From an uncultured bacterium (GTDB lineage Bacteria; JAGOEH01), in assembly GCA_964632485.1 (NCBI GenBank), contig CAZWDO010000011.1, positions 1-64,000 of the forward strand: DNA of 64,000 nucleotides, written 5' to 3'. The notes beneath the pieces are model-generated. The model had not been told where the DNA came from. It saw only the letters and a program-made list of their open reading frames with translations, and ran no database searches. The first letter of the stretch is position 1. Each line of letters starts with the position of its first letter. A program made the translations under genes and the position numbers. Below are positions 4,727 through 61,947 of this stretch, piece after piece.

Positions 4727-4912
4727 TTTAGTTCCAGTATATTTCGAATATACAGAGTCTTTTTTTCAATTTAATATCTTTTTTCGTGAAACGATGAATA
4801 TCTAGATTATCCATCGCTTTAATTATTGGTTGGCGGGATGCTCGTCGGTAACCCTTCCGAGAAATCATCCCACCAACACAAATTAAAATGGAGAAATATA
4901 TATTAAAACAAT

Positions 4913-5315: not shown

Positions 5316-5367
5316 CGTTTTTTAAAAAAAACAACAATAACGTTAACCTTAAAAAGGATTAACACAC

Positions 5368-7632: not shown

Positions 7633-7823
7633 TCCACCCGTGGCGGTGGAATGTAGGCATAGTTGACACCCATCACATCTTATCCTCAGCCAGGAGGCAC
7701 CTATGATCCGGGCTCCATAGCACGGAACTACTCCGTTTTGCTTCCGTTTTGTATTATCGGCACCTCGATGCGTAGAGACCGATAAAATTCAAAATTATTG
7801 CCATTTAAAAAAAGGATAATCAT

Positions 7824-9133: not shown

Positions 9134-10243
9134 ATGAGCAAAAAAAAATTTCATTCGGACAATGTCTCGATTGTTCAAATCAACGGCCAGGATTGGTATC
9201 GGTTCGACCGGTACATCAATGGTGTTCGCATTCAGAAGCGGATCGGTCAGGTCGGCAAAATCACGGAGAAGGTCGCCAAAGAAACGGGAGAGCGTTTGTA
9301 TCGGGAATACATGGAGAAACCGGTACAAAAAGGCGCTCCGGCCAAAATAAAAGATTTGCGCTTCAATGAAGCCGTGGATCACTTCTTCGATGTTCTGGAA
9401 AAGCAGCCATACAAGATTACCGAAAAGACTCGCAAAATGGGTACTTATTATGTCCGCGATCATCGCAACAATGCCAAAAATCTGTTAAAACGGTTTGCTA
9501 GAAAATTGATTTGTCAAATCAAAAAGGACGATATTCTTGAATACATGTATCAACGCCTTTTAAATCATGCTCAATCGACCATCAATAAAGAAGTCGTATT
9601 TCTCAAGCTGCTCTGGAAGCTATTGGTTCGGGAAGGCTACCTGCAGGAAAACCTTATGAACCAGATCAAATTATCGAAACCGAGTAACAAGCGTACCGTA
9701 GTTTTCAACGAAGAAGAGTATAATCTTTTGTTGGAAAATTGCACTGGCGATAAATCCCATCTCACACCGATTCTGATCATAGCAGCCTTGACCGGGATGC
9801 GCAAGTCTGAATTGTTGAGTCTTCGATACGATCGGATTGATTTTGATCACAAAGTTGTGCATCTCGCAAAGACAAAGAGCGGTGAGCCTCAGGATGTCCA
9901 TTTGTGCGATACCGCGCTTGAGGAATTGGCGCGAATGAAGGCGAAGGCCCGGGATAAAAAAGGCTATGTCTTTCTATACAAAGGAAAGCCGATCAAGGAT
10001 ATCAAGACATCATTCGGTAAGTTGCTCAAAGCATGTGGCCTGGAAGATAAAGGGTATCGTTTCCACGACACCCGCAGCTTTTTCTGCACGGAATTGATCA
10101 AACACGGGGCGAATGTCGAAGCGGTTCGCAATCTGGCGCGCCATAAAGACGTCAATACAACCCTGCGCTATGTGCGAATGACAAAACCAGAGCTCAATAG
10201 TGCCGTCAATACGATGAACAACATTTTCAAGCCGAATCGATAA
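9134..10243 (+). CDS. int: Tyrosine recombinase / phage integrase (ORF open from 9047; likely start 9134)
   Basis: TGMRKSEL (R), KTKSG (K), FHDTR (HxxR), ARHK (H), TLRY (Y); adjacent to a tRNA. Confidence 0.95.
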   Translation: MSKKKFHSDNVSIVQINGQDWYRFDRYINGVRIQKRIGQVGKITEKVAKETGERLYREYMEKPVQKGAPAKIKDLRFNEAVDHFFDVLEKQPYKITEKTRKMGTYYVRDHRNNAKNLLKRFARKLICQIKKDDILEYMYQRLLNHAQSTINKEVVFLKLLWKLLVREGYLQENLMNQIKLSKPSNKRTVVFNEEEYNLLLENCTGDKSHLTPILIIAALTGMRKSELLSLRYDRIDFDHKVVHLAKTKSGEPQDVHLCDTALEELARMKAKARDKKGYVFLYKGKPIKDIKTSFGKLLKACGLEDKGYRFHDTRSFFCTELIKHGANVEAVRNLARHKDVNTTLRYVRMTKPELNSAVNTMNNIFKPNR

Positions 10244-11436: not shown

Positions 11437-12373
11437 CTTTTTCTAAAATAATCCGGATGGGCAAACCGATTTCATCACAAATCTCGGCGCCGGTTTCATA
11501 TATGATCTCGTCTCCCTCACGATAATACCAGTTGATGAATACTTCTCCCCCCATTAGATGATATCTTTTTAATATATGAAGCATATCGAGCAAACATTTA
11601 GAAGAACTGGTATTGATGAATGAAAAATGTAAATTAAGCGTAATGGCATTCCGTATTTGATGGATATAATTTTCAATCCATTTCATCAGTGGATTAAAAA
11701 ATTCAAAGGCATTGGGGGGATAAGAGGCTCCAGAAAGTTCTAATATTCCGCTATGAACGTTAAATTTTACTCCTAAAGTGGATTTTTGCGGTGAAATTGT
11801 CAAATCTGTACATACTATTTCTTTTTCAATTTTGACAGCCAATGACAGAAAATCCTGATTTTCATCAACCGATGTCAAATGATAATGGATAGGAAACCCT
11901 GATTTTCGAATGATTTCAATTAAACCGATACCCGCGCCATTACTTTCATTTTCTCTGGGTTCTCTTACTTTATCGCGATATGCTTTTTTTAGCGAGTCTT
12001 TATCCATTTGATTCAAATAATCAATATGTTCAACTAAGGTTTTTGATTTCAGTTTATGGATATAGTTCCCGGAAAGAATATTGTATTGTTGATCCAGTTC
12101 ACTCACTATAACGATACCGATTCCAGTGCTTTCTGTACCGAATTCATTTTTAATACGCTCAGCAGAGTGGTGATAGATATTTTGGACTAATTCGATAAAA
12201 ATTCCAAAAATTTTGCGCGCAATCATTACATTCGGCTCACTCTCGGAAATCTGATTATATATCATTTCCGCCATAGACTCCAGTATGGGATGAGAAATAA
12301 TCCCTTTGAAAGCCAAAACGATCTGTTTATCTGCCATGCGATTATATTGATCAAAAAGTTCATTCATTTTCAT
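11429..12373 (-). CDS. siaB: SiaB-family protein kinase (DUF6272) fused to a SiaC-family (DUF1987) domain
   Basis: IFIELVQNIYHHS and GAGIGLIEIIRKS (GHKL-like SiaB); C-terminal SGASYPPNAFEFF...FINTSSSK...INWYY (SiaC). Confidence 0.85.
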   Translation of the reverse strand: MKMNELFDQYNRMADKQIVLAFKGIISHPILESMAEMIYNQISESEPNVMIARKIFGIFIELVQNIYHHSAERIKNEFGTESTGIGIVIVSELDQQYNILSGNYIHKLKSKTLVEHIDYLNQMDKDSLKKAYRDKVREPRENESNGAGIGLIEIIRKSGFPIHYHLTSVDENQDFLSLAVKIEKEIVCTDLTISPQKSTLGVKFNVHSGILELSGASYPPNAFEFFNPLMKWIENYIHQIRNAITLNLHFSFINTSSSKCLLDMLHILKRYHLMGGEVFINWYYREGDEIIYETGAEICDEIGLPIRIILEKGD

Positions 12374-12404
12374 ATTATTGTCCTTTTCTTTTCAACCTGA
12401 AATA

Positions 12405-12782
12405 TTAATTAACACAAATTAGTTGAAATGAGAAAGTTGTATCTTCGCGGATTTCCTGCCCTGTTTCCAAAATGCTTTCATCATCATAAACATAATACCA
12501 ATTGATCGATACCGGACATCCAGACTGGAAATAATCTTCCAACAACAAAACAAGATCAATCATGCATTTGGTTGAGCTTGTGTTGAGGTAGGAAATACTG
12601 ATATTAAGCTCAATCGGTTTTTTTTTCTCGGTCATGTAACTTTTTAGCCAGCTCATCAGGGGATTAAAAAATTCAAAAGCGTTTTCCGGGTATGAAGAAC
12701 CGGAAAGTTCCAGGATACCAGTATCCCAATCAAAATTGATACCCAATGTCGATTTAGTTTTTTCCAAACTCAGATTATCCAT
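12405..12782 (-). CDS. siaC: SiaC-family regulatory phosphoprotein (DUF1987)
   Basis: LELSGSSYPENAFEFFNP, YLNTSSTK phosphoacceptor motif, INWYY. Confidence 0.9.
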   Translation of the reverse strand: MDNLSLEKTKSTLGINFDWDTGILELSGSSYPENAFEFFNPLMSWLKSYMTEKKKPIELNISISYLNTSSTKCMIDLVLLLEDYFQSGCPVSINWYYVYDDESILETGQEIREDTTFSFQLICVN

Positions 12783-12798
12783 ACCATCCTCCTAAAGT

Positions 12799-15700
12799 TT
12801 ATCGAAGCGCAACGCCGAAAATTGTAATATCATCTCGCTGTTCTTCTTGTTGTTGATGGGCTTTCAAAGCATGCAACAATTCCTTTTTCTGACTTTCCAA
12901 ATCGTATTCGGAAATATTCAATAACATATTTTTAAAACGAGATACGCCGAATTTACAGTCTTTATAATCTTGCTGATCAACAAATCCATCGGAAACCATG
13001 AAAAAAGTTTGAATAATATCCAGAGGTAGAATATGGGTAGTAAACATGCGTTTAGCTTCTTTTTGACGCCCGCCGATCGATTTTTGATCTCCTTTCAACT
13101 CAAACAATTTCTTGTCTGATACATAATACAGGGGACGTTTAGCGCCGGCAAAACTAAGATTTCCAGCTTCTTCATCGATCAAACACAGAGCAACATCCAT
13201 GCCATCCATGGTGTTTGCATCTATTTCATCCTGTTGCAGCACATAGCGTATGTAAGTGTGCATTTCTCCGAGTATCTGCGAAGGCTCCCAAATATTCTTC
13301 TCAACTACAATCTGATTTAATAAGGAATAGCCAATAATCGACATGAATGCGCCTGGAACACCGTGTCCCGTACAATCGACAACAGCTACAATTTTTTTCA
13401 TGTTTTTGCGATAGACCCAGTAAAAATCGCCGGATATGACGTCTTTAGGTAAATACACTATAAAAAAGCTATGCAAGATATCCTGAATATAATCCATAGT
13501 AGGCAGAATGGAGTTCTGAATTCGTTGAGCATAACGAATTCCAGCCATAATATTCTGATTTTTCTTTTCAATAATCCGATTTGCCAGAGAAATATTTTCT
13601 TTTTCCTGGTTCAAGGATGCCAGTGTGAGTTGCAAATCATGAGTTCTAATCTCGATAATCTGTTGCAATTCTAATTGACGATGGCGCATCTGTCTGATTC
13701 TAAATCCATAAAATCCAGACGCTAATATCAATAAAATAGAACCCATCAGCAAATAAAAGGGCCAGGTTTGATAAAATAGAGGTAATACTTTAAAATCCAG
13801 GCGAATACCCTCTGTATCCCAAATTCCGTCATGATTCATGGAAGTAACTTCAAACTGATAGTCTCCGGAAGGAAGATTTGAATAAAAAGCGGTACGTCGT
13901 GATTTAGCATGAACCCAGCGATCATCAAAACCCATAAGGCGGTACTTAAAGTAAATTTGTTCAGGCGTCTGAAAATGGATGGATGAGTAGTGAAATTCAA
14001 TATTTTTCTCATTGACTTTCCACTCGATTTTATTATTAACATCAAATGTCCGGCCATTAATCATGACGCGTTCAATCATGGTTTGAGGCGGTGGAGCGCT
14101 CTCCTTATTCGCTTGAATGGACATAACTCCTTTAAACGTGGGAAAATAAAATATCCCTTGAGAATCAAAGAATGCGGAGGGTTGGAATCCGCCGTTACAT
14201 TCTTCGTCTGACATACCTTCATTCAATCCATAATTCACGGGGTAGATATAATCCGTCTTACTCTGAACCAGATCGATTAAATCCGAACGCTCAATACACA
14301 TAATTCCTCGTTTGGAGCTGATCCAAAAGCGATGATTTTTTTCCAATATCCCCTGGATATAATCGTCAGGCAATCCCTGAGTAGTTGTAATGGTGTAAAA
14401 ATATCCATCCTTATAACAAGAAATTCCTCCTCCATCAGTGCCGATCCAAAGATAGTGATCTGCATCCTCATAGATCGATCTGATCACTCCATGAGCCAGA
14501 CCGTCAGTGGGTGTATAGTTATGATAATCATGATTTTTTAATGCAACCAATCCCCCACCGTTGGTTCCCACCCATAAAGTTCCCTGATGATCTTCCAGTA
14601 TTGCCGTGATGCCATTGTTAGCTTTTCCATCCCGATCGAGAAAACTGATAAAGTGGTTATTTTCATATTTCATCAAACCATCCTGGGTACCCAGCCAAAT
14701 TATATGCCGGCTATCTTCATAAATCACATTGTTGGTTAGACTTATCAATCCATCCCGGTAACCGAATTCCCGTAAATTTTGCTTTTCATAACAAAACAAC
14801 CCATTTCCCGCAGAGCCAATCCACAACCGATTGCGAGAATCTTTTAACACACAACAAACATTAATTTTCGCCGAAATTTTCGAAAAACTGCTTAACTGAT
14901 TCCGACGCAAATATTTTAGCCCTTGTCCGTTAGTCGCTATCCATATTATGCTATCCCCATCCAAAAACATTCCATTAATTATCGTCCCTTCCAATTCCTC
15001 AGAGAGACTTTTAACCTTACGATGGCGAATGCGTTTGAGTCCCCCTCCTTCCGAACCAATCCAAATACTTCCTTCCCGGTCTTCGAACAAAGATAAGATA
15101 CGCTGATTGGCAATGTTTTGTTTCTGTGTAAAATGGAAACTCTGTCCATGATCATATAGTAATAACCCTGAGGATTTGGTTCCGATCCAGTAGCGGCCGG
15201 ATTTATCGATCAACAAGCTGCTGATTGCTGAATGAGCCGAATAAAGCAATGTATAAATCCCATTTTGCAGGCGCCATAGTTCACCAGATTCCGTTCCAAT
15301 AATCCAATTTTCGGGTTTACCGGCGCAAGCGCTGATGGTATTAAATGGAGTTTGATCGCGGGCAAGAGAAATAATTGCTCCCGAACTCTCTATGCAAAAC
15401 AGTTGATGATTGGCATCGATAAAAAGAGGGATTCCAGTTGCCGTCATGGCAACAGCAGAAACCGTTTCGTAAAAATTGTCGTTGGGAAGGGTTACAGGTT
15501 TTAATTGATGGCGCCGATAAAGAGAAAATCCGTTGGACATGCTAATCATAATGCCGGAATCGTTTCGTACTCCCAGCCCTTTAATGAAATCAGAGGATAA
15601 TCCTTGATCGAGATTATAGCGGGTGAATTCTTCACCCTTTTTAATGATCAGCCCTCCCCCGTTCGTTCCAATCGCCAAATCTCCATCAAGATTAGTGATC

Positions 15701-43837: not shown

Positions 43838-44872
43838 TTAGAATTGCACGCTCATTGAAAAGCGATGAACATTGGTAAGAATGCCAAATTGTGAGTAAGC
43901 GTAATCGATTTTCAATCCCACCTGGTTGTTCATAATCGGATAAAGCACCCCGAAACCGGCGCTCAAACCTTCTTCAGAATCTTTCATAAATAAGGACTGA
44001 TACCCGGCGCGCAGGAACAATTTTTCCCAAATCCCGTATTCCATGCCCACATTCATCGATTCGGAATTATTGTTGGGATGAAGGGCGTCCACCGCCATGG
44101 TCAACCGCTGAAGATCATTCTTGAGCACGTCCATGGAAAGGCCGACGCGAAAAATAAGCGGTAAGGGATACTTTTCAGTCTGCAGATTGGAGTAGATGCG
44201 ATCGTTATTGCCTTGATTATCCACATCCGTGTCATAGTAGGTAAACACATCGCGACCTGAAAGCTGCATTTTTCCACCGTAATTGGACATGCTCATGCCG
44301 ATTTTCATGCCGCGGAACTGAGTGGTGAACAACGTACCCAAATCGAACGCAATCTGCGAAGCCGACATGTTCATAATATTCTGGCTGACGTACTTGGCAT
44401 TGAACCCAATGGAGAAGCGATCGGTCAGATTGCGGGCAAAGGATAGTCCGATACACAAATCGCTGGGGCTGAATTTCAATCCAGCGTTACCTTCCGGATC
44501 GGCAATCGTGGTTACCAACATATCATCCATTGAGAGCGCTGTGTAGGATGCACCCACCGTACCTATGCCAGCCAGAGGGATGACGATTCCCAGAAAATTG
44601 TAACTCACATCCGCCAGCCATTGCGTGTGGACGAAAACGAATTCGTTGCGGGCTACGCGGGAAATGCCTCCCGGATTCCAATAAAGAGCGGATGCGTCAT
44701 TGGCGATAGCGACAAATGCCCCGCCCATAGCAATCGCCCGGGGACCGGCGCCGATTTCTAAAAACGAAGCCGAGGTGGTCGCAACTTTGGTTACGGACTC
44801 AGCATGGCTGATTCCGACCAGCAACGCCAAATTCAGGATAATCAATCGGAAAAATTTTATCTGGTTTTTCAT
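43838..44872 (-). CDS. PorV/PorQ (UPF0164)-family outer-membrane beta-barrel
   Basis: SFLEIGAGPRAIAMGGAFVAIANDASALYWNPGG; C-terminal HRFSMSVQF. Confidence 0.88.
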   Translation of the reverse strand: MKNQIKFFRLIILNLALLVGISHAESVTKVATTSASFLEIGAGPRAIAMGGAFVAIANDASALYWNPGGISRVARNEFVFVHTQWLADVSYNFLGIVIPLAGIGTVGASYTALSMDDMLVTTIADPEGNAGLKFSPSDLCIGLSFARNLTDRFSIGFNAKYVSQNIMNMSASQIAFDLGTLFTTQFRGMKIGMSMSNYGGKMQLSGRDVFTYYDTDVDNQGNNDRIYSNLQTEKYPLPLIFRVGLSMDVLKNDLQRLTMAVDALHPNNNSESMNVGMEYGIWEKLFLRAGYQSLFMKDSEEGLSAGFGVLYPIMNNQVGLKIDYAYSQFGILTNVHRFSMSVQF

Positions 44873-44900
44873 ATCAATATGACTCCTTCGCGATCATAGA

Positions 44901-47900
44901 TTACTTGATTATGGCGAATTTGCCGATTTTTTCACCAATACCGGGTGCATCGACATGGAAAATATAAACACCATAGGAGATTTCCAAACCATCCTTGGAA
45001 ATCAGGTCCCACGATTCGGATCCATCGTTCATCGCTCCGTTATGCTCGATTGTATCGACCAAGTAGCCGTTGATGGTAAAAATTTTGATTGTACATTTTT
45101 GGGGCAGATGAATGAAATCGATTTTCTGCTCACCCCGGCCATAATCGAAGAAGTTCTGAGGTTCCCAACTGGCGACGACAACATAGGGGTTAGGGACGAC
45201 ATGAATGCGGTCCATTTGGCTCTTGGCCTGGGTATTATCCACATAGGCGGCAGTCGATCGAAACGCATAGCTATCCTGATGATCGAAGGGCTTGATGAAT
45301 ACCAGACTGTAAACATCGCCGCTTTGCGGGTCCACGTTGAGCGCGATGCGGGTAGTGTCGGGAGGTGTAACCATCGTATCAATAATCACCGAATCGGGTT
45401 TCACAGACAGCCGGAACTGCCAAGTTCCACGCGTTGAGGCGCTTCCGGTTCCAGGACGGACGATGATAATATCGTCCCCGCTGGAAAACTTCTTATCCTT
45501 GTCTCCATCGCGGTTAACGTATTCCCATTCCTCGTTTAATGACGTATTCATGATAATGAACGGCGATGGATATTTGTACTGGACATCCCGGGATACTGAA
45601 TCGCCGATGGCGCCCTGAAAACGGATTTCAAAATCGTAATTGATCCCGGCTCCGGCGCGGAATTCCTTAAAATTATCCAGAATCCAGTTACAATTTCCCA
45701 AAACCCATTTGGCTTTGGATGTATCTATTTCCAATTTCTCTTCGTTATAGACAAAAAGATGCATGCCCTCGAAAATCGGATTTGTCAGTTCGCCGTCAAG
45801 CAATCCACTATGAAAGACTGGATAGTATAGATAATCAATGGAATAGCTGGAGCCAAACGCCATGGTACCGTTGGCAAGCATGCGTATCTGGCCGGTGACA
45901 TAGTTGATCTCGTAATCGACGCCAGTCTGAAAGGAGCTGTTCTGTACCACGACCGAAGCGGAATCGAGTCCGGTATGTCCCAAATCGATCCAGGAAGTAT
46001 CGGCAATGAAGGATTCCGTAACAGGTTGCTCATTCTTCAATGAATAGACAAGGGCGTTAGAACCGGCTGTCGTATCCATAGCCGAATCAAAGTGGATGGT
46101 ATAATTCCAGCCATCCTGAACGACCAATGGATCGACAATGCGAACATCGATGCGGCCCGTGCCGAATCCGGCGGTCTGCTCAATGGCGCCATCGCTGGTG
46201 GAAAGATCGGAAGGGAAGATAAACCCGGCAGCCGGAGACTCGGGGGTAATCACCACGGTATTAATATCGGTGGAGAGCACTTTGCCCAAGGGGTCGGTGC
46301 GGATGATTTTGCTGCATTCGGAGGGAGCGATTTGGGGCAGATAGGGTAATGGAGAAATTCCTTTTTCGTAAAAATCGGAATAATAGCCCTGGTCGTAGGA
46401 AACCACGGCGTAGTAATAAGTCTGGCCGTTTTGAACATCAGTGTCGGTCCAAGAGTATTGCAGTCCGTTATCCGTGCCCATGTCGTACTGGATGCCGTTG
46501 AAGGCCACCGGATGGGGACCGCGCAGGCCATTGTTACGGTCGAACTGAGCCACCGGTTTGTTATAGGTCGGATTGCCCCAGGCGTCGGTGATCGACCAGC
46601 CTTCGAGGAAATTGGGATCGCGGGATTTGTAGATGCGATATCCCTCAAAATCATAACCGTAGATATGATCCTTGGAGATTTCTGCCTTGCGGTCCCAATA
46701 AAGGGTTACCTTGCCATCGCCGGCTATGGCCGCTACCATGGGCTTGTTCGGAGCTTTGGCGAAGGCGTAATCGGCGTCGTAGATTTTCTGCATGGTAGTG
46801 GCATTGCGTTTGATATCGTCGGCATCTTCGCCGAAGAGCATGGCAATGGAAAATTTACGGGTTTCATTGGGATAGAGGGGGAAATAGCCGGACCCGTAAA
46901 GGAACTGCAAGTCCTTGGTCTGTTGCGGAATATTGAAGCTCTCTCCGGTATTGGGCAGGGTCCATTCCCAAAGCATTTCATCCTCCTCGGCCGTAATATT
47001 GGGCCAGACGTCGGCCAGGAAGCTGGTCAAGCCGATCTGATCCGATTCATCATTATCGGTTAATTCGAAATTCGGCTCACCCAAATCCGGTACGCCATTA
47101 CCTTCGCTGCCGTCCACGTCCGGTCCCGGATATGCCGGGTCATCCTTGGGAATCCCATCGGTTCCGACATCGTCAGTTTCAGCATTCCAATCGCCATCAT
47201 TATCGATCCCATCGGATTGACTTTCATCGATGATTCCATCGCCATCATTATCAATACCGTCATTGGGATTGCCTGGAGATTCCAAAAATTTAAATCCGAA
47301 AAAAGCCGGCCGACCGCCCCAAACGCCCTTCATATCGGAATCATATTGGAACACCATGTTGAAAGTGGTGTCCCAATCTGCGTTATCGTCTTTCTGGTCG
47401 CCGTCATCACCGACGTCTGCATCGCCGTACATGCCAAAAACCACCTTTTCATAATTGGTCTTGCCCATATTGGTGATCATGTAGGTCCATATCAGGATGT
47501 CCTCGGCGGCGGGGTTGGACCACTGGTAACCGCGGACACTCACTTTAAGACCCAAACCAGCCATCGTAGTGTCGGACGGATCCGGATAAAATGGAAACTC
47601 GTTGTTGTAGAAATCATTCATTACGAAATAGGATTCCTGATCGGCGCGGCTGTATTTTCCGTATTGGCCGTTCCAGTCGCCATCCCAGCTCGCGTCACGA
47701 TCCGGCCAATGATTAGGCCAAGTGGTCGAATCGTCGCTCATGGCGATTTTCTCTTCGGCCGGCGATACCGTATGGTCCACACCGGTATAACCCGCATAGG
47801 GCCAGAAAATCAAGGGTTCCTTAGTGATCGGATGTTGATCGTTCAAGCTGGTGCTGCCGATGCCATCACTGAAAATATGGATGACTTTTTGGTTGTTATT

Positions 47901-48209
47901 GACAACTTCGGAACCGACCATGGGGCTGAATTCTGCCAAATAACTATGGCCCGAGCCTTTGGGATAGATTCCGCAGCGGATACGCGATCCCACCCACCAT
48001 TCGCCGATGGTGCCGTAATTGGTGAAAGCGGTTAAAATGCGGTTACCGTCATGCACGCCGAACAGTTGCCGGCCTTTCGACGAATCGCCCAGCATCGGTT
48101 TATACAAATTTTTAGGATAAACTGGTTTTTCATCTTCGTGATCGGCGGCGAAACCCGTCATCGCGCTGAATAAAACCAATATGAAGGAAAAAAGAAATAA
48201 TCGTTTCAT
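44901..48209 (-). CDS. Large secreted protein with Asp-rich Ca-binding repeats, an FN3-like region and a T9SS-like C-terminal domain
   Basis: Signal peptide MKRLFLF; DGIDNDGD twice; GDGKVTLYWD...FEGYRIYKS...YYYAVVSYD; IHVVPNPY...LPQKCTIKIFTINGYLV...WDL...GVYIFHV. Confidence 0.8.
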   Translation of the reverse strand: MKRLFLFSFILVLFSAMTGFAADHEDEKPVYPKNLYKPMLGDSSKGRQLFGVHDGNRILTAFTNYGTIGEWWVGSRIRCGIYPKGSGHSYLAEFSPMVGSEVVNNNQKVIHIFSDGIGSTSLNDQHPITKEPLIFWPYAGYTGVDHTVSPAEEKIAMSDDSTTWPNHWPDRDASWDGDWNGQYGKYSRADQESYFVMNDFYNNEFPFYPDPSDTTMAGLGLKVSVRGYQWSNPAAEDILIWTYMITNMGKTNYEKVVFGMYGDADVGDDGDQKDDNADWDTTFNMVFQYDSDMKGVWGGRPAFFGFKFLESPGNPNDGIDNDGDGIIDESQSDGIDNDGDWNAETDDVGTDGIPKDDPAYPGPDVDGSEGNGVPDLGEPNFELTDNDESDQIGLTSFLADVWPNITAEEDEMLWEWTLPNTGESFNIPQQTKDLQFLYGSGYFPLYPNETRKFSIAMLFGEDADDIKRNATTMQKIYDADYAFAKAPNKPMVAAIAGDGKVTLYWDRKAEISKDHIYGYDFEGYRIYKSRDPNFLEGWSITDAWGNPTYNKPVAQFDRNNGLRGPHPVAFNGIQYDMGTDNGLQYSWTDTDVQNGQTYYYAVVSYDQGYYSDFYEKGISPLPYLPQIAPSECSKIIRTDPLGKVLSTDINTVVITPESPAAGFIFPSDLSTSDGAIEQTAGFGTGRIDVRIVDPLVVQDGWNYTIHFDSAMDTTAGSNALVYSLKNEQPVTESFIADTSWIDLGHTGLDSASVVVQNSSFQTGVDYEINYVTGQIRMLANGTMAFGSSYSIDYLYYPVFHSGLLDGELTNPIFEGMHLFVYNEEKLEIDTSKAKWVLGNCNWILDNFKEFRAGAGINYDFEIRFQGAIGDSVSRDVQYKYPSPFIIMNTSLNEEWEYVNRDGDKDKKFSSGDDIIIVRPGTGSASTRGTWQFRLSVKPDSVIIDTMVTPPDTTRIALNVDPQSGDVYSLVFIKPFDHQDSYAFRSTAAYVDNTQAKSQMDRIHVVPNPYVVVASWEPQNFFDYGRGEQKIDFIHLPQKCTIKIFTINGYLVDTIEHNGAMNDGSESWDLISKDGLEISYGVYIFHVDAPGIGEKIGKFAIIK

Positions 48210-48222
48210 GTCATTCCTCTCG

Positions 48223-50893
48223 TTAGAAACTGACTTTGACGCCGAATTTGACCAAACGCGGTTCCGAATAATAATCCGGTCTGACCGGCCATTCGCGGAT
48301 ATAGTCCCGTACCGGAACCTTGGTTTGTTCATCCACTATATCATAGGTGGCGCGGCCCGTGGCATCGTACACCAGGTCTTCGTTTTTGGTATCAAACAAG
48401 TTATACACAGTGCAAAAGAGCGTATAATTCATGNNNNNNNNNNACATTGAAACGATTGGGTTTGCGCGCGCTGTTGACAATGCCTGAGGCCTGACTCAAC
48501 GAGGTTTTTTCCGGGGTATAGGGCAATCCGGTGCCGTAGTTGCCGATCAGGCTCAGCATCCAGTTGTTGAGCACGCCTATAGAGAGCGTACCATTGATGG
48601 TATGGCGCTGGTCCCAATCCAATGGCACCTTCATCTTGATGATATCATTGAAATCATCCACCACGGCGGCTTGTTCAGCATCGGTCTGGTTGCCTTCCGA
48701 CACAGCGTACGAATAATCAAGATGAGCGGAAAAGAAATTAGAAAAACGCTTGTCGAAGGCAAAGGTAATACCCTTCACATCGCCAAAATCCAGGTTGTAA
48801 TAAATCGAACGAGCCACTTCGCCGCCCTGCCACATCAGCTTACGGGTATATGAATTGGTCAGGTTGCGGATATCCTTATAGTAAGCCGTTACATCAAACG
48901 CGATATCCTGCGTCAGTTGCTGCTGTAGACCTACTTCATACTGCACGGTGAGCTGAGGCTTCAAGCTGGCGTTGCCAAAGGTGGATTGGCCATCGACTTC
49001 AAAATCGCTATTCAGATATAAATTCTGATATTCAGGCAATTGCTGGAAATGTCCATAGGAAAAATGAATGATACCCTGATCCGTGATCGGATAAGAAACT
49101 CCTAAGCGCGGGCTGATGAAATTGTTCACCTTGGCATCGGTTTTCGGCTGGGTGATATCATTGAAATCCGGTACTAAAGATGCCGGATCGAAATACTCAT
49201 ATCGAGCGCCGATGTTGACGATAAAATCTTCCAATTCGATTTTATCCTGGATAAAAGCCGCGAAATAAATTGGTTTCTTGTCATAAACATCGCGCGTCGG
49301 GGAGGTCTTGGCCGTTTCTTCATCGAAATACTTGAACAGGCTATCGTCATCATCGAAGAAAATTTCACGGTAATCATAGCTGATATCGCTAAATGATTGC
49401 TCGATACCAGCCTTGACCTGATGGTTCTTGTTGAGCTGGGAAGTGATTTCGCCCTTCAACTCGAATACCTTGGAATAACGGTTTGTCCGGTCGAGACGAA
49501 TCCCGGAAGCGTTAAACTCGGCGCCGTTAAAGGCATTGCTGATGGCTACGGGATTGTAATACTCGTCATTCAACCATTTGTTATTGGGTTCGGCGACCGC
49601 ATACTGATCAAAGTGGTTATAAAGATATTTCGCCCTCAATATATAGAACGTATTGGGCGATAAGGTATGATTCAAATTGGCGATGATGGTGTAATTGTTG
49701 TTGTAATAGGTATAATCCCCATCCGGATTGTATTTGTAGGCATGATGATAAAGCCGATATTCCTTATCGCCGACATTGGTGTTGAGATTGAATTTTAGAT
49801 TTGTCGAAATTTGCCAGGTCAGTTTGAACTGGCCGGAGTATTCACGACGATTGTTCAACGACACCACCTTGTCTGAACCGAACATTTCGTTCCCGTTTTC
49901 ATCCACATTGGGAATCAGATACCCATCCTCGTCCTTGTCAGACGAATAGGTGGTGGGTAGATATTTTCGTTTGCCGAAGTAGTAGCCGCCATCTTCCAAC
50001 CAGCGGCCGGAAGCGAAAAACGAAAGCTTGTTGTTGATGATCGGGCCTTCAATATTGAATTGTAAATCATTGATTGCTATGGGATTAAAATTATTGATAT
50101 TGAAAAAAATGTCATTGTGATTGCTCAAGTAATCGCCAAGAGATAAATTAAGATCGCCACTATAGCGGCTGAAATTGCCCTCTTTGGTGACGATATTGAT
50201 AATACCGGACATCGCCTGGCCGTATTCGGCATTAAAGGTGCCGCTGATCAACTGCAGTTCCTGAATCGAGTTGTTCTCGATGGAAACGCCCATTGAATAA
50301 TTGTAGGGATCGGTCACGGAAATGCCATCGACCAAAAATCCGACTTCGTTGGAACGGCCGCCGCGAATGTGCATTTCACCACTGCTACCAAGAACGACGC
50401 CGGCCTGCTGGTTGATCACATCGGCGAAATTGTCCACCGGCATGGCATCGATCTGATCGCTACCCACCATGGCCTGGCTCGAGGTTATATCCTTGCGCAC
50501 CAACATCTTCTCGGCAACAATTACCTGTTCTTCGCCCTGGATCGCCTCCACACCCAATGGAAATTCCAATTTGGTCGTCAAATCAATGTTCACATTGACC
50601 TGGGTGATCTTCATGGTCTTGTAACCAATCATCATGGCTTTGATCGTATAGATTCCTGGATCTATGTTCAAAATTGAAAAATACCCATCCATGTCTGTAG
50701 CCGCACCCATTTTTGATGCTATATCCACCTCAAATTCATCAAACCATATTGCATCAATGATCAAATTAGCGCTCGGTAACCCTTCACCCGTTTCCGCATC
50801 AATGACCCGTCCGGCAATTTTACCGGTTGTTCCGGCCAGCGCAAAACTGCACATAACCAACAACAAGGCACTAATCAACAATTTAGGTTTCAT
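48223..50893 (-). CDS. TonB-dependent receptor; interrupted by the 10-N gap, so split into two ORFs in the track
   Basis: GTTGKIAGRVIDAETG, HIRGGRSNEV, SGTFNAEYGQAMSG, SPRLGVSYPITD; the C-terminal ...YNLFDTKN...EPRLVKFGVKVSF lies after the gap. Confidence 0.9.
48434..48443. other. Assembly gap (10 N)
   Basis: Run of N. Confidence 0.99.
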
Positions 50894-51369
50894 CAACCCT
50901 CCTTGGTTTTGATTGTTTACTGAAACCGACTTAAAAAAGCATTTGCAAATCTACTACTGATTTTTTGTCAAAAGCACAATGTATTGGGAAACAATGAGTT
51001 AGGTCAAAATATCCCAAATACGTTATTATTAATATACTTAAAAAACAACAAATGTCAACATTTTTCTTTTGAATTATTTTTTTTTTTTGATATCGGTATT
51101 CAGTCCAGAGCCCCACTAAAAAAACTGATATTTTAAAATCGGATCAGTACCTGGATAAATTTGAGTTACTATTAAATCTCTTTTAGTTTTAATTGCGACA
51201 TTTCATTCCTCGATTTTAACATTCCTTGAATTAACTTATAGAAACCGGATCTGAGAGTTTATCGTATCAATTTCCTTAATTTTGAACACCCATTAATTTA
51301 AAATAACTCTTGACTTTTATCCATTAATTTTGTATGTTCAATACAACACTTCATCAAACAGAGGATATT

Positions 51370-53149: not shown

Positions 53150-54151
53150 ATGCAACATAACCGGGCGCTTTTTCAGGTCGGTAAATGTATTGTTCAATAT
53201 CATTTACATAAATCTTACGCACGCATTTATATGCCCTATCAGTTCCATGATTTCCATATTGACGAATGCCACCAGGATTTATATGCGACCGCGTTGAACG
53301 TGGAATTTAAAAAAATCCGGTTCGACCGCCAACGTCAGAAAATCCTGCAGGGGGACACAAAAAAAATCAATCATTATCAAACCCAATTTCGCGAACTGGT
53401 TCAAGACTCACTACCGTTCAAGACTCTCGATCGGCTTCCGGATAGCCAAATCATCATGCATTTGAGCTATCGATTTTATATGAATAGTGAATATGCGGAA
53501 TGGATTGATTCATCCGCTTTTCAGTATTTTCAATATCAAAATCATACTATACTGATAAATTCCGCCGCCCGACGCGCCGTGGAATTGGTTTTCGACGCCT
53601 TTCCCGAAACTGTAGCCATCGATGGCAACAGCCTTTTTTTCCTTTTGAACCACTCGCTTTGGGCGAATCATGGCATGGCGCTGCATGGAACGGCATTTCG
53701 GCATAACGATTGTGCATGGCTGTTCTTGGGGGCATCTGGAAGCGGAAAATCCACACTAAAAAGAAGCTACCCGGATTTGGAATGCTACAGCGACGACGGG
53801 GTCGTTCTCCATTATGAACCAAATGGGGAATTCACCGTTTATCCCTCGCCCTTTTATCAATTCTCCCGGTCGAGGCATCAACTGGATATCCATCCATCTT
53901 CTCTCAAAGCAATTTTTTTTCTTTTCCATGGAGATCGGACCCATCAGATCCCCGCCATGGATAAATTCTCTAATATCAACCGCATAATGATTCAGCAACA
54001 GCATTTTTATGATTATCTATCTCCTGTCCAAAAACGTTTTCAGTTTGAGCAAATCTCGCATGTCCTCGACAAAATTGCTTGCCATAATCTATTTATATCG
54101 CTCACTGAAAAAAAATTGATAGAGATTTTGAATATCACAAATACCGAATGA
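53150..54151 (+). CDS. HPr-kinase-related P-loop protein (ScmC/HprK-rel type; start may be 53231)
   Basis: LHGTAF....AWLFLGASGSGKSTL...YSDD...PSPF. Confidence 0.75.
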   Translation: MQHNRALFQVGKCIVQYHLHKSYARIYMPYQFHDFHIDECHQDLYATALNVEFKKIRFDRQRQKILQGDTKKINHYQTQFRELVQDSLPFKTLDRLPDSQIIMHLSYRFYMNSEYAEWIDSSAFQYFQYQNHTILINSAARRAVELVFDAFPETVAIDGNSLFFLLNHSLWANHGMALHGTAFRHNDCAWLFLGASGSGKSTLKRSYPDLECYSDDGVVLHYEPNGEFTVYPSPFYQFSRSRHQLDIHPSSLKAIFFLFHGDRTHQIPAMDKFSNINRIMIQQQHFYDYLSPVQKRFQFEQISHVLDKIACHNLFISLTEKKLIEILNITNTE

Positions 54152-54252
54152 TTTTTTTTCTTGCCAAATTAGTTTATTATTATTATATAGTCAGAAAACA
54201 ATGGATAGCTATATATAATAGCTTGGGAAAATCGCCAACTAAGGAGTGTTTA

Positions 54253-55239
54253 ATGAAAAAAAAATATCAACCGCCATCGATTTTCGAATTCAACGTATTG
54301 TCCAGTGAAGCCATGGGTTTTACTTCCATGACGTGCACCATTGGCGACAATGCGGCGCGGGAATGCACCAGCGGTGGCAATCCGACGGAAACGTGCCAGG
54401 TTGGCGGCTATGCGGCCTACTGGTGCAATCCGGGCACCAATGCCGGTTTTTATTGCCGAACAGGAACATATGCGGATTCGAATGTCTGTCAAACTGGAAC
54501 CCGGGCAGAAATTGACTGCAATGCTGGCAACAACCCGCACCCAGTGGCGAGTGTATGCAACAACGGCAATAATCCCGGATGGATGCATTGCCTGGAGGGA
54601 AGCAATGCGGATTCGGCATGCAGCGCCGGTCAAAGCGCCACCTCCGCCTGCTCCGGAGGCGCTTACGACGACGGCCAGGATTGCAGCTACGGCAATGCGC
54701 CGACGTATGAATGCAACAACGGCAACAACCCGGATAGCTATCACGCTTGTAATCTCGGCAACCAGGCATCCTATGACAACTGCACCAACGGCAACAATGC
54801 CGGCGGCGATTGCATCAACGGGGACGGCACCTGTTACAATGGATACACGGCCGGATGGACGTATTGTACATTCGGCACCAGCGCCGAACAGGGCTGCCAG
54901 AACGGCTACACTCCGGAAGATGTTTGCTCTCCGGGCGCGAATGCCACTTCCACTCCCGGCGGAGAATGTGAAAACGGATTCCAGGCTTATAACGGCGGCG
55001 GATCCTATAATGATTGCAATTTGGGCGAAGAAGCCCGAGGCTCCTATTCCTGCAATATCGGCAACCTGGCGAACTACGGCGGCTCCTACCCCACCTGCCG
55101 CACCGGCAACTCCGCCTATGACGGAGGCGGCGGCAGCTCCTGCGGAGTGGGTAATTCACCCGATTCGCGCATGGCCTCGCCCGGCATCCATTTCGATGAT
55201 TTTGACGAAAGCTGGCACTCGCCTCAAATGGAACGATAA
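54253..55239 (+). CDS. Cys-rich RiPP-precursor-like protein: KKKYQPP leader followed by 25 CxxG repeats (ScmA-like)
   Basis: AAGGAG RBS at 54241; leader MKKKYQPPSIFEF; every Cys after this start lies in CxxG. Confidence 0.75.
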   Translation: MKKKYQPPSIFEFNVLSSEAMGFTSMTCTIGDNAARECTSGGNPTETCQVGGYAAYWCNPGTNAGFYCRTGTYADSNVCQTGTRAEIDCNAGNNPHPVASVCNNGNNPGWMHCLEGSNADSACSAGQSATSACSGGAYDDGQDCSYGNAPTYECNNGNNPDSYHACNLGNQASYDNCTNGNNAGGDCINGDGTCYNGYTAGWTYCTFGTSAEQGCQNGYTPEDVCSPGANATSTPGGECENGFQAYNGGGSYNDCNLGEEARGSYSCNIGNLANYGGSYPTCRTGNSAYDGGGGSSCGVGNSPDSRMASPGIHFDDFDESWHSPQMER

Positions 55240-57873: not shown

Positions 57874-59703
57874 ATGAAAAAACTCAGTGTATATTTCTTA
57901 CAATTACCCGTACCGGATGTCAACAGCGCTTATTCAGAAGCTAATATTCCGCTGGCTGCCGGTTATTTGACGGCGCTGGCTCAAACCCGATATCCGGTGG
58001 ATCAATTTAAAGCGTTTATACCCACTGATAATTTCATGAACCACGCGAATGATCAAAGAGTGATCCATTCGATTCTTGAAAGCGACGCCGAATTGGTTTG
58101 TTTCACCAATTACATGTGGAATATTGAGCGGCATCTTTTTATTGCAAGGGAGGTCAAAGAGCGGAACTCCCGAATAAAAACGATCTTTGGGGGACCAGAA
58201 ATTGCGCAAGGTTCACCATTTATTAATGCGTCGGAAATTGACTGCCATTGTTTCGGGGAAGGGGAGACTATTTGGCTGACATTACTGGATGATTGGTACG
58301 GCTGTGGAGTATTAAAACCGGCCTATTACGCCACACATCCCATAGATCCCGGACAGCTTCCCAATCCTTATCTGGCGGGAATTCTCTCTATCAATAAAAC
58401 CCATTCCGCCTTACTCGAAACGATGCGCGGATGTCCTTATCACTGCCATTATTGTTTTTACGGAAAATCGAATCCGGATTTGCGTTTTTTCCCCGAGATA
58501 ATGATTGCCGATTTTTTCCAGTATTGTCAACAACATTTGCCGGAAGAAATTTATCTACTGGACCCTTCCTTTAATCTGACACCCAACCTGATTGAACGCT
58601 TAAAAAAAATGGCCGGGTGGAATAAGCGCTCCATCCCGATCCATACTGAAATCCGTCTGGAAAGTCTGACGGACGAAGCAGCGGAATGGATGAAAAAGGC
58701 CGGATTCCGTTCCATTGAAGTGGGACTGCAAACCACTCATCGCCAGGCGCTGGAAGCGATCAATCGCAAATGGTCCCGTTCCCGGTTCATTCAGGGAGCC
58801 CGATATCTACAAGCCCGCGATATCGATATTAAAACCGGCGTAATCCTCGGTTTGCCCCTCGATCGCTTTTCCGACTTCCAAAAAACCATTGAGTTCGTCG
58901 ATAGTCTGAATCTTAGCGAAAGCATGGAAGTATACCCACTTTCACTCCTTCCTGGAACTTATCTCAGAGAGCAGGCTCAACAACTGGGGATAAAATTCAT
59001 GAAGCTTCCCCCTTATTGGGTAACTCAAACTCCCTCATTCGGTTCTGTTGAGATGATACAGGCGATTGCCTGGCTTGAAGATTTACTCTCGATTGATTAC
59101 TATCCTGCGATGACGCCCACTTTTTCCAATTCTGTAACCCACCATGAATTCATTTCAAGTATTGATTTTAGAGAAAAAAACGCACAGCGCTGGCAACGAT
59201 GGACCGCTATGCCCCTTGCGAATCATCTCACCCTCATATTCAAACCTGAGGATATCCCGGATTCATTTTATCTCCAGGCGCGGGAATTAGTTGAGAAAAA
59301 TCCATTTATGACCTTCCAAATCGTGCTTGCCGTTAATGAAATGCCTTCAATATCCCTGGCTATTAAAATTGCCAATACATTTTATAACCCGGATCACTAT
59401 CTGAACCGTCTGCACTATTTCAAAAACGATACCCAAAAAAAATATTCTGCGCGAATCTATCATTTAACTTCCTCCCCGATTTCAGGGGAAAAATATCTCG
59501 AAAATCCCCAACCGTTTGATCTGATTATCGATTATCGTCCCGGGATGTTGCAAACCTCACGGAACCTATTTGAAGGACTGCCTATTGTGTTGCTCAATAC
59601 TCAAATATCGATTCCCGAAATCCAGGAACTTAAAGCGATGTATCGCGGATTTGAAAATCTATTGATCATGGACGATTCCAATTCAAGACACCAATCTTTT
59701 TGA
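57874..59703 (+). CDS. B12-binding-domain radical SAM protein
   Basis: NIPLAAGYL...CFTNYMWN...GGPE...GEGE (cobalamin-binding); ETMRGCPYHCHYC (CxxxCxxC); no SPASM motif seen. Confidence 0.9.
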   Translation: MKKLSVYFLQLPVPDVNSAYSEANIPLAAGYLTALAQTRYPVDQFKAFIPTDNFMNHANDQRVIHSILESDAELVCFTNYMWNIERHLFIAREVKERNSRIKTIFGGPEIAQGSPFINASEIDCHCFGEGETIWLTLLDDWYGCGVLKPAYYATHPIDPGQLPNPYLAGILSINKTHSALLETMRGCPYHCHYCFYGKSNPDLRFFPEIMIADFFQYCQQHLPEEIYLLDPSFNLTPNLIERLKKMAGWNKRSIPIHTEIRLESLTDEAAEWMKKAGFRSIEVGLQTTHRQALEAINRKWSRSRFIQGARYLQARDIDIKTGVILGLPLDRFSDFQKTIEFVDSLNLSESMEVYPLSLLPGTYLREQAQQLGIKFMKLPPYWVTQTPSFGSVEMIQAIAWLEDLLSIDYYPAMTPTFSNSVTHHEFISSIDFREKNAQRWQRWTAMPLANHLTLIFKPEDIPDSFYLQARELVEKNPFMTFQIVLAVNEMPSISLAIKIANTFYNPDHYLNRLHYFKNDTQKKYSARIYHLTSSPISGEKYLENPQPFDLIIDYRPGMLQTSRNLFEGLPIVLLNTQISIPEIQELKAMYRGFENLLIMDDSNSRHQSF

Positions 59704-60036: not shown

Positions 60037-61947
60037 ATGAAACACAGTTTAATTTTCAGCCTTGTTCTCTGCTTTACGTGGCCAACTGTTTCACTGTTGG
60101 CGCAAGTCCCAACAGCGCCACAGAATCTTACGGCAGCCGTTTCCGATCAGAATCAAAATTTTAAAAAAGTTACTTTAAACTGGGATGCAGTGGAACCAAC
60201 CTCCGGCCAACGCAACATTTATTATAAAGTTTATCGAAAAGACGGAGACTTGAGTAGTAGCCAACCCTTTGAGGTGATCCATCCTCACACTAATTTTACT
60301 TTTTATATTGATCGTCCCATAAAAGAATCAGCGACATTTTGCTATTATGTAACCGCTAATGAAAATAAAAATGAAAGTTCCCCATCAAATACGGTTGAAG
60401 TGCCGATCGAGATCGAAGACGGCGGTGAAAAAGGATTTATCGCAGGGAATGTAAGAGACGATTCCAATCAGGCAGGCATTGCCCAGGCCAGACTTTTTTT
60501 CATTCCGCATCAATGGAGTTTTCCGACACGAACAGAAACCGATTCCACTGGCTACTTTATAGTGGAGGCAGAGGCTGGTAATTACGCGGTCCATACCACT
60601 GCCATCCATTATTTCAGTGAATTTTACGACAACGCCGGTTCAGTATCAACAGCGACCATTGTAGCAGTACCCCCCGGCGATACCATTTTTCTCGATATCG
60701 CTTTAACCGCCAAAAACTCACCGATCACCTTTTCACTAAGCGGGAAGGTTATGGATACACTGGCCCAGGCTGTACCCTCTACCCTGCATGCGTTTTGCAT
60801 CGCGTCCTATGATCAACGTGGTCCCAAACATGCAGTAGCCCAAACGGACGATGACGGCGCCTATCAATTTAGTTTCAATCAGGGCGATACAGTCATTATT
60901 CTGGCAATTCCCCGAGATAAAACGATTCGTCCCGAATACTACCAGGATCAATATGATATAACAGAGGCCACCAGCATCGCTATTAATGGCGATATATCCG
61001 GAATCGATTTTATCGTCGCCGGGCCAACTAATTTCAATAACCAGCTCAGTGGCCGCATACTTAATGATTCCCTTCAGGGCGTTTATTCCTGGGTTACTGC
61101 CTACCGTTTAACGGATCGTAACCGCAGAAATTTTAAATACAGCATCAATTCGGATTCCAACGGTCACTACGAATTAACCAATTTGGATCCAGGACCTTAT
61201 ATCGTCCGCGCAATTCCTCAAGATGGATACCGACCATCGTTTTATCGGATCGATCAGACGACAACTGTTAAATGGAAAGAAGCCGACACAGTTTGGATCG
61301 ATTCAGCAAGTCAGATAGATTCGATTGATATTAGTGTCGATCCTTGCGGGGAAAATGGTTTAGCATCGATTGGCGGATCAATCCTTTTCCCTACTCTGAA
61401 CAATCTGAGCGCTCAAAGCGATTCAAACGAAACCGCAGGAATAATGGTTTACGCTTTCAATTCCAATCAGTATTTAACAGCATTTACGTTTACCGACGAA
61501 TTGGGCGACTATTCAATTCAAAACCTACCTCCGGATTCATACCGCTTAATCATTGATAAAGTGGGGTATGAAAATGATAGCAGGGAAAATATTGTAGTGG
61601 ATTATTTCCAAAACATCAGTCAATCCGTTGATTTTTCATTAATCCCAACCTCCATCAACACCGATCAACAGTTCCAGGCCAAAAAAGATATCATCGTTAC
61701 AGCGCCTTATCCAAATCCCTTCAATCAAGCTCTGCAAATCCGTTTCGTTCTTCTACAGAAAGAAAAAGTAACTGTTACGATTTTCAATTTATTGGGAGAA
61801 AAAATTACGGAATTAATTTCCCAAAAGCTCAATAGCGGTGAACATACGGTTGAGTGGCAAGCCGGACAACTTCCTGCCGGGATCTATTTCTGCCATATTC
61901 AAACTGCGCATTCAAGGATAACCGCAAAGCTTCTACTATTGAAATGA
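60037..61947 (+). CDS. Secreted protein: FN3 + carboxypeptidase-regulatory-like repeats + T9SS type A sorting domain
   Basis: Signal peptide; PTAPQNLTA...ESSPSN (FN3); repeated G.V...TD..G.Y; PYPNPFN...IFNLLGEKI...PAGIYF...KLLLLK. Confidence 0.85.
   Translation: MKHSLIFSLVLCFTWPTVSLLAQVPTAPQNLTAAVSDQNQNFKKVTLNWDAVEPTSGQRNIYYKVYRKDGDLSSSQPFEVIHPHTNFTFYIDRPIKESATFCYYVTANENKNESSPSNTVEVPIEIEDGGEKGFIAGNVRDDSNQAGIAQARLFFIPHQWSFPTRTETDSTGYFIVEAEAGNYAVHTTAIHYFSEFYDNAGSVSTATIVAVPPGDTIFLDIALTAKNSPITFSLSGKVMDTLAQAVPSTLHAFCIASYDQRGPKHAVAQTDDDGAYQFSFNQGDTVIILAIPRDKTIRPEYYQDQYDITEATSIAINGDISGIDFIVAGPTNFNNQLSGRILNDSLQGVYSWVTAYRLTDRNRRNFKYSINSDSNGHYELTNLDPGPYIVRAIPQDGYRPSFYRIDQTTTVKWKEADTVWIDSASQIDSIDISVDPCGENGLASIGGSILFPTLNNLSAQSDSNETAGIMVYAFNSNQYLTAFTFTDELGDYSIQNLPPDSYRLIIDKVGYENDSRENIVVDYFQNISQSVDFSLIPTSINTDQQFQAKKDIIVTAPYPNPFNQALQIRFVLLQKEKVTVTIFNLLGEKITELISQKLNSGEHTVEWQAGQLPAGIYFCHIQTAHSRITAKLLLLK

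Follow-up and report, generated by a model that had tools for sequence, protein, structure and literature searches.

The window analyzed here is a stretch of 64,000 nucleotides (positions 1 to 64,000 of contig CAZWDO010000011.1, assembly GCA_964632485.1) from an uncultured bacterium. It contains a gene at 54253-55239 encoding a protein of 328 amino acids (AA), referred to as P0001, in which all 25 cysteines begin a C-x-x-G motif. The question raised by this locus is whether such a protein is an unusually large precursor of a peptide that is synthesized ribosomally and modified post-translationally (RiPP) or a repetitive protein of another kind. A first-pass annotation made from the sequence had proposed a giant RiPP precursor, either as a poly-thioether substrate or as a metal-binding beta-solenoid of an undescribed class. 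The results presented below point to a probable answer: a protein-sized, RiPP-like precursor of the ScmA family that is modified at each repeat unit by PqqD, ScmE- and ScmF-like proteins of the SynChlorMet type, is acted upon by its cognate ScmC-like protein, and remains one chain.

Gene and protein in the window

The features of the locus, in positions of the window, are the following.

53150..54151, forward strand: gene for the ScmC-like partner, a 333-AA P-loop protein with a predicted HprK/PEPCK-like fold (from motifs, TIGR04249, AlphaFold2 (AF2) and Foldseek)
54241..54246, forward strand: Shine-Dalgarno-like AAGGAG, 6 nt before the ATG (from reading the sequence)
54253..55239, forward strand: putative giant ScmA-like precursor gene, 328 AA and stop codon (from translation, paralogues, an orthologue and homology to short ScmA-type precursors)
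54253..54324, forward strand: predicted leader, residues 1-24, MKKKYQPPSIFEFNVLSSEAMGFT (from residues invariant in six paralogues and from hhalign)
54334..55170, forward strand: predicted core, 25 units of C-x-x-G-x-x-[A/P]-x-x-x, the first beginning with Cys28 and the last with Cys297 (from Cys positions and spacing, and from the unit logo)
55171..55236, forward strand: acidic, Cys-free C-terminal tail, residues 307-328 (from translation)

The N-terminus of the protein reads MKKKYQPPSIFEF. A further in-frame ATG at 54148, which overlaps the stop codon of the upstream ScmC-like gene, would extend the open reading frame (ORF) to 363 AA. The 328-AA reading was kept because the paralogues and orthologues all start at MKK and because the ribosome binding site (RBS) precedes 54253. 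The exact 328-AA sequence was not found in a collection of 15 billion proteins; P0001 is present in the ESM Atlas. The alternative start may explain this absence. Long ORFs overlap the gene in other frames and on the opposite strand, which, together with the missing exact match, could suggest that this G+C-rich stretch merely contains a spurious ORF. However, the RBS, the conserved leader, the six paralogues and the orthologues in two genomes with invariant Cys and Gly columns leave this explanation with a negligible probability.

The length, the strong RBS, the repeat architecture and the acidic tail described in the first-pass annotation were all confirmed. The distance between consecutive Cys residues ranges from 7 to 16 residues, with 10 or 11 residues in 16 of the 24 gaps, and position +6 of the units is occupied by Ala or Pro in 23 of 25 cases. 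This arrangement is far from what the composition of the protein would yield, since 100,000 shuffles of P0001 contained a mean of 3.87 and a maximum of 14 CxxG motifs, and as many as 16 gaps of 10-11 residues did not occur in any of 20,000 shuffles. No tandem repeat was detected by Tandem Repeats Finder at the DNA level of the gene, which suggests that the units are old and have diverged. The sequence of the tail is not conserved across the paralogues.

The gene is also more G+C-rich than its flanks, as had been noted. Its G+C content is 56.3 % compared to 43.8 % for the genome, and 300-nt windows reach 0.58 within the gene and 0.33-0.45 in the flanks. Since the genes of all six paralogues are G+C-rich (50-56 %), this is attributed to the Gly/Ala/Cys/Asn composition of the proteins and not regarded as a sign of foreign DNA. 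Predicted promoter and terminator sites between 52900 and 55500 were no more frequent than in shuffled sequences.

Paralogues and orthologues

The genome of the window (G000, a 4.45-Mb assembly in which the window contig is C11) was compared with a genome of the same family (G001) and a genome of the same order (G002). These belong to a panel of 41 genomes comprising G000 and 40 others, 38 of which are related to it at domain level only. A six-frame scan of the G000 assembly revealed six ORFs with 16-30 CxxG motifs, while the next-best ORF, encoding a 1017-AA protein, contained 6. The six paralogues have a length of 214-377 AA, contain 16-31 Cys and share a 24-residue leader in which K2, Y5, P8, I10, F13, L16, G22 and T24 are invariant in all of them. 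Their genes form six precursor and ScmC-like modules distributed over three contigs (C11, C8 and C3). When the six frames of G000 were scanned for this leader followed by at least three CxxG motifs, only the six giants were found, so there is no short precursor of this type in the genome. The unit logo of the paralogues has only three constrained positions, namely C (100 %), G at +3 (95 %) and A or P at +6 (81 %). The YxxP motif of the leader recalls the leaders of lasso peptides. Likewise, its Thr recalls the penultimate-type Thr of lasso leaders described in the available part of PMC10368454.

A colinear orthologue of the window protein is encoded on contig C28 of G002, with 45 % identity over 245 columns and with unit-specific residues retained, which suggests that the position along the chain is conserved. 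The two precursors are reciprocal best BLAST hits. For the partners the relation is one-way: the C28 partner matches the window partner best, and the window partner in turn matches a paralogue in G000 best. One of the modules on contig C3 of G000 (C3a) is orthologous to the module in G001, with 53 % identity between the precursors and 50 % between the partners, both being reciprocal best hits. In maximum-likelihood trees of nine partners and nine precursors, this C3a/G001 pair is the only one supported in both. As the trees resolve only this pair, co-diversification of precursors and partners rests on best BLAST hits. In the GTDB-based collection, the phylum is represented by three genomes, all of which encode giants.

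Relation to short ScmA-type precursors

A word-indexed protein search with P0001 among proteins of near length returned nothing at E<=1e-3, and relatives appeared only with a profile. This profile was built from the six G000 giants and searched against 1.84 billion representative proteins, resulting in 163 matches at E<=1e-3. Among the best 150 of these 163, 115 proteins do not exceed 160 AA (64-160 AA), have a YxxP leader and contain 3-11 CxxG motifs with a median of 6. In these short members, 729 of 776 Cys are part of a CxxG motif, 503 of 661 gaps measure 10-11 residues, and the same three unit positions are constrained as in the giants. Three longer leader-bearing proteins of 214-280 AA were also among the best 150: two from G000 itself, and P0007 with 280 AA. 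Unrelated tandem repeats make up most of the other 32, for example P0004, P0008 and P0011, which are perfect repeats within unrelated multidomain proteins and were rejected as relatives. This remainder also includes one further giant, P0005 (264 AA), whose library entry is truncated at the N-terminus. For the external giants P0007 and P0005/P0152, the best match in G000 is a different paralogue in each case, with 36-37 % identity. Together with the colinear and orthologous modules, this indicates from sequence comparison that the giant form and its paralogy are old.

The short members link the giants to a catalogued family. The curated NCBIfam cut-offs that apply here and below are 35 bits for ScmA (TIGR04252), 125 for ScmC (TIGR04249), 100 for ScmD (TIGR04248) and 400 each for ScmE (TIGR04250) and ScmF (TIGR04251). 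TIGR04252 was matched by 28 of the 115 short members at E<=0.01, two of them above the cut-off, and no other family recurs among them. An hhalign comparison of the giants with 18 short members yielded a probability of 98.8 % and an E-value of 5e-17 over 81 columns, with leader aligned to leader and the units in register. Although P0001 itself misses the curated model, these matches identify the giants as predicted expanded precursors of the ScmA type.

Given 25 repeated units behind one leader, the protein could also be a multi-core precursor whose modified chain is cut into many cyclic peptides of about 10 residues. The short members with their 3-11 units fit this idea in so far as they show that the unit is a functional module. 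However, positions +7 to +9 are variable and lack a conserved cleavage motif, the units differ from each other without any repeat at the DNA level, the same-order orthologue is colinear and keeps its unit-specific residues, and no conserved protease gene lies beside the modules. This makes a multi-core precursor unlikely, and an expanded ScmA-type precursor that stays in one piece is the preferred reading.

Two further library proteins are candidate fusions of a PqqD domain with repeats. P0026 (514 AA) has an N-terminal PqqD domain at residues 26-87 (PF05402, 23.9 bits with a cut-off of 23.4), followed by CxxG-type units, often CxxGxxP, with a spacing of mostly 10-15 residues. It looks like a RiPP recognition element (RRE) fused to a giant repeat substrate. 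The start of P0132 (466 AA) resembles that of P0026, and no Pfam match was found for it.

Core operon and its link to the giants

An operon on contig C2 of G000 encodes a 138-AA PqqD protein, a 99-AA PqqD protein, an ScmE-like and an ScmF-like enzyme. The top families of the two enzymes are TIGR04250 (219.4 bits) and TIGR04251 (316.6 bits), both below the cut-offs, and their Radical_SAM and SPASM Pfam domains score above theirs. The two PqqD proteins match PF05402 with 37.2 and 43.7 bits (cut-off 23.4). TIGR04248 (ScmD) was matched below its cut-off by a G001 protein (22.8 bits) and by no G000 protein at E<=0.001. In total, G000 has 11 SPASM and 5 PqqD matches, and no SPASM enzyme is encoded near the precursor gene in the window.

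The connection between this core and the giants is provided by G001, where the gene order is PqqD, PqqD, ScmE-like, ScmF-like, a 236-AA precursor with 20 CxxG motifs, and ScmC-like. There, TIGR04250 (225.5 bits) and TIGR04251 (287.3 bits) are again the best matches, both below the cut-off. G002 contains the same four-gene core, which stands alone without an adjacent precursor. Hence, a single cassette is present in G001, whereas core and modules are separated in G002 and in G000 (core on C2; modules on C11, C8 and C3). The ScmF orthologues of the three genomes are 67-72 % identical. The precursor profile matches four of the 41 genomes (G000, G001, G002 and G024), and an ScmF-like query at E<=1e-40 matches the identical four. 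In G024, a compact cassette was found, with a precursor of about 100 AA between two ScmF-like genes and next to a 237-AA mini ScmC. The expectation of a giant RiPP precursor is thus supported by the leader, the ScmA homology, the linkage in G001 and the co-occurrence, whereas a maturase beside the window gene is lacking. The homologue and neighbourhood analysis that had been suggested as a check likewise came out in favor of it, with the YxxP leader in 115 short relatives and maturases next to a giant in G001.

Among solved structures, the ScmE- and ScmF-like enzymes are closest to PqqE, CteB (5wgg/5why), SkfB, anSME, BlsE and MoaA. Of these, PqqE, CteB, SkfB and anSME are peptide-modifying SPASM or twitch enzymes, and none of the structures decides the chemistry.

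With the core assigned, the remaining structural explanation can be weighed: an unmodified structural or metal-binding Cys-repeat protein, similar to a beta-solenoid or a metallothionein, with 25 free thiols and an unrelated or regulatory ScmC-like neighbor. Several properties agree with it, including the regular period of 10 residues with one Cys per unit, the Gly/Asn-rich and acidic composition (33 D+E, 10 K+R, pI 4.15) and the lack of a maturase adjoining the gene in the window. Moreover, the authors of a study on another Cys-repeat protein, CrpA, also consider metal binding in the available part of PMC13692751. However, no fold was predicted. The AF2 model based on a 6-row alignment has a predicted local distance difference test score (pLDDT) of 32.4, a predicted TM-score (pTM) of 0.13 and no secondary structure, and the ESM Atlas model is also poor (pLDDT 0.43). 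The best ESM Atlas feature scores (0.76-0.78) lead to hypothetical proteins of about 100 AA and serve as leads only. The lack of a predicted fold fits a substrate chain and not an autonomous beta-solenoid, and the solenoid suggested at first found no support in the structure prediction named as a check. In addition, the leader is of a RiPP type common to short precursors within cassettes of radical S-adenosylmethionine (SAM)/SPASM and PqqD genes, the G001 giant is directly linked to maturases, and the long library matches without a leader are unrelated repeats. A purely structural or metal-binding role is therefore considered improbable compared to that of an enzyme-modified precursor.

Other observations concern the core PqqD proteins and genes beside individual modules. 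At the N-terminus of the first core PqqD, a twin-arginine-like motif precedes a hydrophobic stretch. The corresponding genes are:

G000 C2 10549-10965, reverse strand: Tat-motif PqqD
G002 9224-9622, reverse strand: Tat-motif PqqD
G001 3-380, forward strand: Tat-motif PqqD, cut by the contig end

An RRE protein could thereby bear a signal for twin-arginine translocation (Tat) or an anchor, which might explain the missing exporter.

On contig C8 of G000 (4493-8088, reverse strand), the precursor and ScmC-like genes are followed downstream, in the same orientation, by three radical SAM/SPASM genes for proteins of 268-303 AA and by a gene whose 319-AA product belongs to no known family. The best NCBIfam match of these short enzymes is a tungsten-cofactor-oxidoreductase maturase model, below its cut-off. 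Close orthologues of these enzymes are absent from G001 and G002, so they are regarded as lineage-specific extras. Convergent to the C3a and G001 modules lies a gene whose 922-928-AA product combines a GT2 glycosyltransferase with a B12-binding radical SAM domain and a SAM methyltransferase. This fusion may be a tailoring enzyme, or its position may reflect nothing more than synteny that has been conserved:

G000 C3 locus 12028-14796, reverse strand: GT2/B12-radical SAM/methyltransferase fusion next to precursor and ScmC-like genes
G001 locus 4781-7567, reverse strand: the same fusion next to precursor and ScmC-like genes

The ScmC-like partner

The ScmC-like gene of the window sits directly upstream of the precursor gene, and a ScmC-like P-loop protein of 301-354 AA adjoins each of the six G000 precursors. 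All six partners retain GxSGxGKST and a downstream invariant Asp, i.e. the Walker A motif and acidic residue of HPr kinase-like proteins, although the other partners are only 23-26 % identical to the window partner. TIGR04249 was matched at E<0.05 by seven of nine partners from three genomes, all far below the cut-off, with 19.7 bits (E 4.2e-4) for the window partner and 37.5 bits for the best-scoring partner, from G001. Some partners also weakly match HPr kinase models, and one paralogue reaches 19.5 bits with Pfam PF07475 (cut-off 33.3). The AF2 model of the window partner, based on a 9-row alignment, has a pLDDT of 70.8 and a pTM of 0.71. Among the Foldseek matches listed for this model, all are phosphoenolpyruvate (PEP) carboxykinases or HPr kinases/phosphorylases, with E-values of 2e-6 to 1e-3 and low TM-scores of 0.22-0.50. 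A predicted complex of the partner with precursor residues 1-60 scored 0.00, compared to a threshold of 0.32, which counts neither for nor against an interaction.

Since the ScmC-like gene is the only invariable neighbor, and the core operon has no adjacent precursor in G000 and G002, the giants might be substrates of the ScmC-like kinases only, i.e. phosphoproteins, with the unlinked ScmD/E/F operon modifying something else. This is very unlikely, because no other G000 ORF combines the leader with CxxG units, the core lies directly upstream of a giant in G001, and precursor and ScmF-like enzyme occur together in the same 4 of 41 genomes. Modification of the giants by the core enzymes as well as action of the partner thus remains the favored interpretation. 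In a literature search on HPr kinases together with PqqD, radical SAM enzymes and precursor peptides, the term 'HPr kinase' was absent among the matches listed, and PMC10288494 contained no Scm or kinase terms.

Proposed modification and its limits

In the proposed mechanism, one or both free-standing PqqD proteins would bind the leader with its conserved KKxYxxP motif and make the unstructured core accessible to the ScmE- and ScmF-like enzymes, which would proceed from unit to unit and modify each of them. A Cys thioether within the unit would be the most likely outcome, and its candidate acceptors are the conserved Ala/Pro in position +6 and the Asn that is frequent at +4/+5. The paralogue-specific ScmC-like protein would phosphorylate its cognate precursor in an ATP-dependent manner or act on it in another way. 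The product would be a single long, multiply cross-linked chain and not 25 peptides. The components expected of a thioether RiPP are present, namely a Cys-containing precursor with a leader, radical SAM/SPASM maturases and an RRE protein, and in G001 they are linked to a giant. Of the poly-thioether substrate first proposed, the RiPP-type substrate for radical SAM/SPASM enzymes is therefore supported by genomic evidence, while the per-repeat thioether cross-links are inferred by analogy.

Several points weigh against this interpretation. P0001 has no NCBIfam match at E<=0.1, TIGR04252 included. The ScmC-, ScmD-, ScmE- and ScmF-like proteins all score below their equivalog cut-offs, which suggests a divergent relative whose enzymes may differ. 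The core operon of G000 is unlinked to any precursor, so that its assignment to the window gene rests on homology, on synteny in G001 and on co-occurrence. The co-occurrence count is not independent because kin genomes are included, and it represents about two independent lineages. An exception to the pairing with partners exists in G002, where a 200-AA precursor with 16 CxxG motifs is encoded on contig C57 (9828-10430, forward strand) and the ORFs listed nearby include no ScmC-like gene. Beside the modules, neither a protease nor an exporter was detected. As the AF2 alignment of the precursor comprised only 6 rows, its low pLDDT is weak evidence of disorder. Finally, although the SynChlorMet cassette is catalogued, a full-text search found no paper containing SynChlorMet or TIGR04248-04252, and thus neither its product nor its chemistry is in print there.

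A broader picture can be offered as a tentative suggestion, which we rate as somewhat doubtful. In this small and little-sampled phylum, the giants may form an old multigene family of RiPP-like proteins with 200-380 AA, in which one PqqD/ScmE/ScmF machine, directed by the leader, serves the 16-30 units of every paralogue, each paralogue has its own co-inherited HprK-like enzyme, and export possibly proceeds via the Tat-motif PqqD. If true, one chain would carry far more links installed by radical SAM enzymes than the substrates in the papers compared here. The giants would be informative substrates, since 25-30 copies of the unit per chain multiply the mass shifts, and since the system is modular, the core enzymes that depend on the leader can be told apart from the paralogue-specific partner. 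They also pose the mechanistic question of how an enzyme bound at the leader reaches sites up to 300 residues away.

Further genes in the window

Other genes of the window were considered as well. A B12-binding radical SAM gene at 57874-59703 was rejected as a part of the system since two transporter genes on the opposite strand intervene; its product is only 19 % identical to the B12-radical SAM fusion beside another module. The regions 43838-50896 and 60037-61947 contain genes related to type IX secretion (T9SS) and outer-membrane genes. One of them encodes a PorV-like protein, another a product of 1143 AA that matches no Pfam family, and a third a product of 636 AA in which a T9SS C-terminal sorting domain is present. 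The gene for a TonB-dependent receptor-like protein has a run of 10 N in its start region (48434-48443), which reads as XXXX near the C-terminal end of the listed translation.

Comparison with known systems

The closest known system is the SynChlorMet cassette, and the proposal of an undescribed class was therefore abandoned. The identical five kinds of components are present, the ScmE- and ScmF-like enzymes have their best NCBIfam matches there, ScmC is the recurrent match of the partners, and the short ScmA-like precursors have the same type of leader and the same unit, CxxGxx[A/P]. In contrast, the giants have 214-377 AA and 16-30 units compared to a median of 6, which corresponds to 4-5 times the median size of the family. 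Furthermore, six scattered precursor and ScmC-like modules share one core, which is detached in G000 and G002, all components of the giant system score below the curated cut-offs, and the modules lack an exporter or peptidase. As far as sequence comparison goes, the system is homologous to the catalogued cassette and works like it, yet it fails every curated threshold.

Lasso peptide pathways offer a parallel for the partner, a P-loop HprK-like protein encoded next to a RiPP precursor. In these pathways, an HPr kinase homologue such as the paeninodin kinase phosphorylates the precursor before folding, according to the available part of PMC8498205. However, the lasso kinases target a C-terminal Ser, whereas the ends of the giants vary and only one of the six G000 giants ends in Ser. 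Moreover, each giant paralogue has its own kinase-like partner, 23-26 % identical to that of the window.

Sactipeptides and ranthipeptides (PapB/freyrasin, NxxcB, CteB) share Cys-bearing cores, radical SAM/SPASM maturases and RRE-type recognition with the giants. NxxcB forms a Cys-Asn beta-thioether and also accepts Ala, as stated in the available part of PMC9389541, which provides a precedent for an Asn or Ala acceptor. The known precursors are short with few cross-links, whereas the giants contain up to 30 candidate sites, and the ScmE/F-like enzymes lie outside the characterized families, reaching 70 bits with the PapB model compared to its cut-off of 340.

An experimental precedent for a thioether protein of about 29 kDa is CrpA from Methanococcus voltae, described in the available part of a 2026 study (PMC13692751). 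This 28.8-kDa protein has ten Cys repeats, in which the radical SAM/SPASM enzyme CrpC installs ranthionine cross-links. Like the giants, it is a protein-sized substrate with a leader, a C-terminal array of Cys motifs and RiPP-type machinery. The two differ in the repeat, as far as that part of the study describes it, with ten copies of a 17-residue C-x-x-Q/D motif in CrpA compared to 25 copies of a 10-residue C-x-x-G motif in the giant. They also differ in the enzymes. CrpC is a TIGR04463 protein with a fused RRE in the same source, while the giants are associated with separate PqqD proteins, two enzymes of the ScmE/F type and an HprK-like partner, and TIGR04463 is not among the best 25 families listed for each of their radical SAM enzymes. 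If the proposed modification applies, thioethers on substrates of protein size would also occur in bacteria, would involve another enzyme family and would reach a far larger number of sites.

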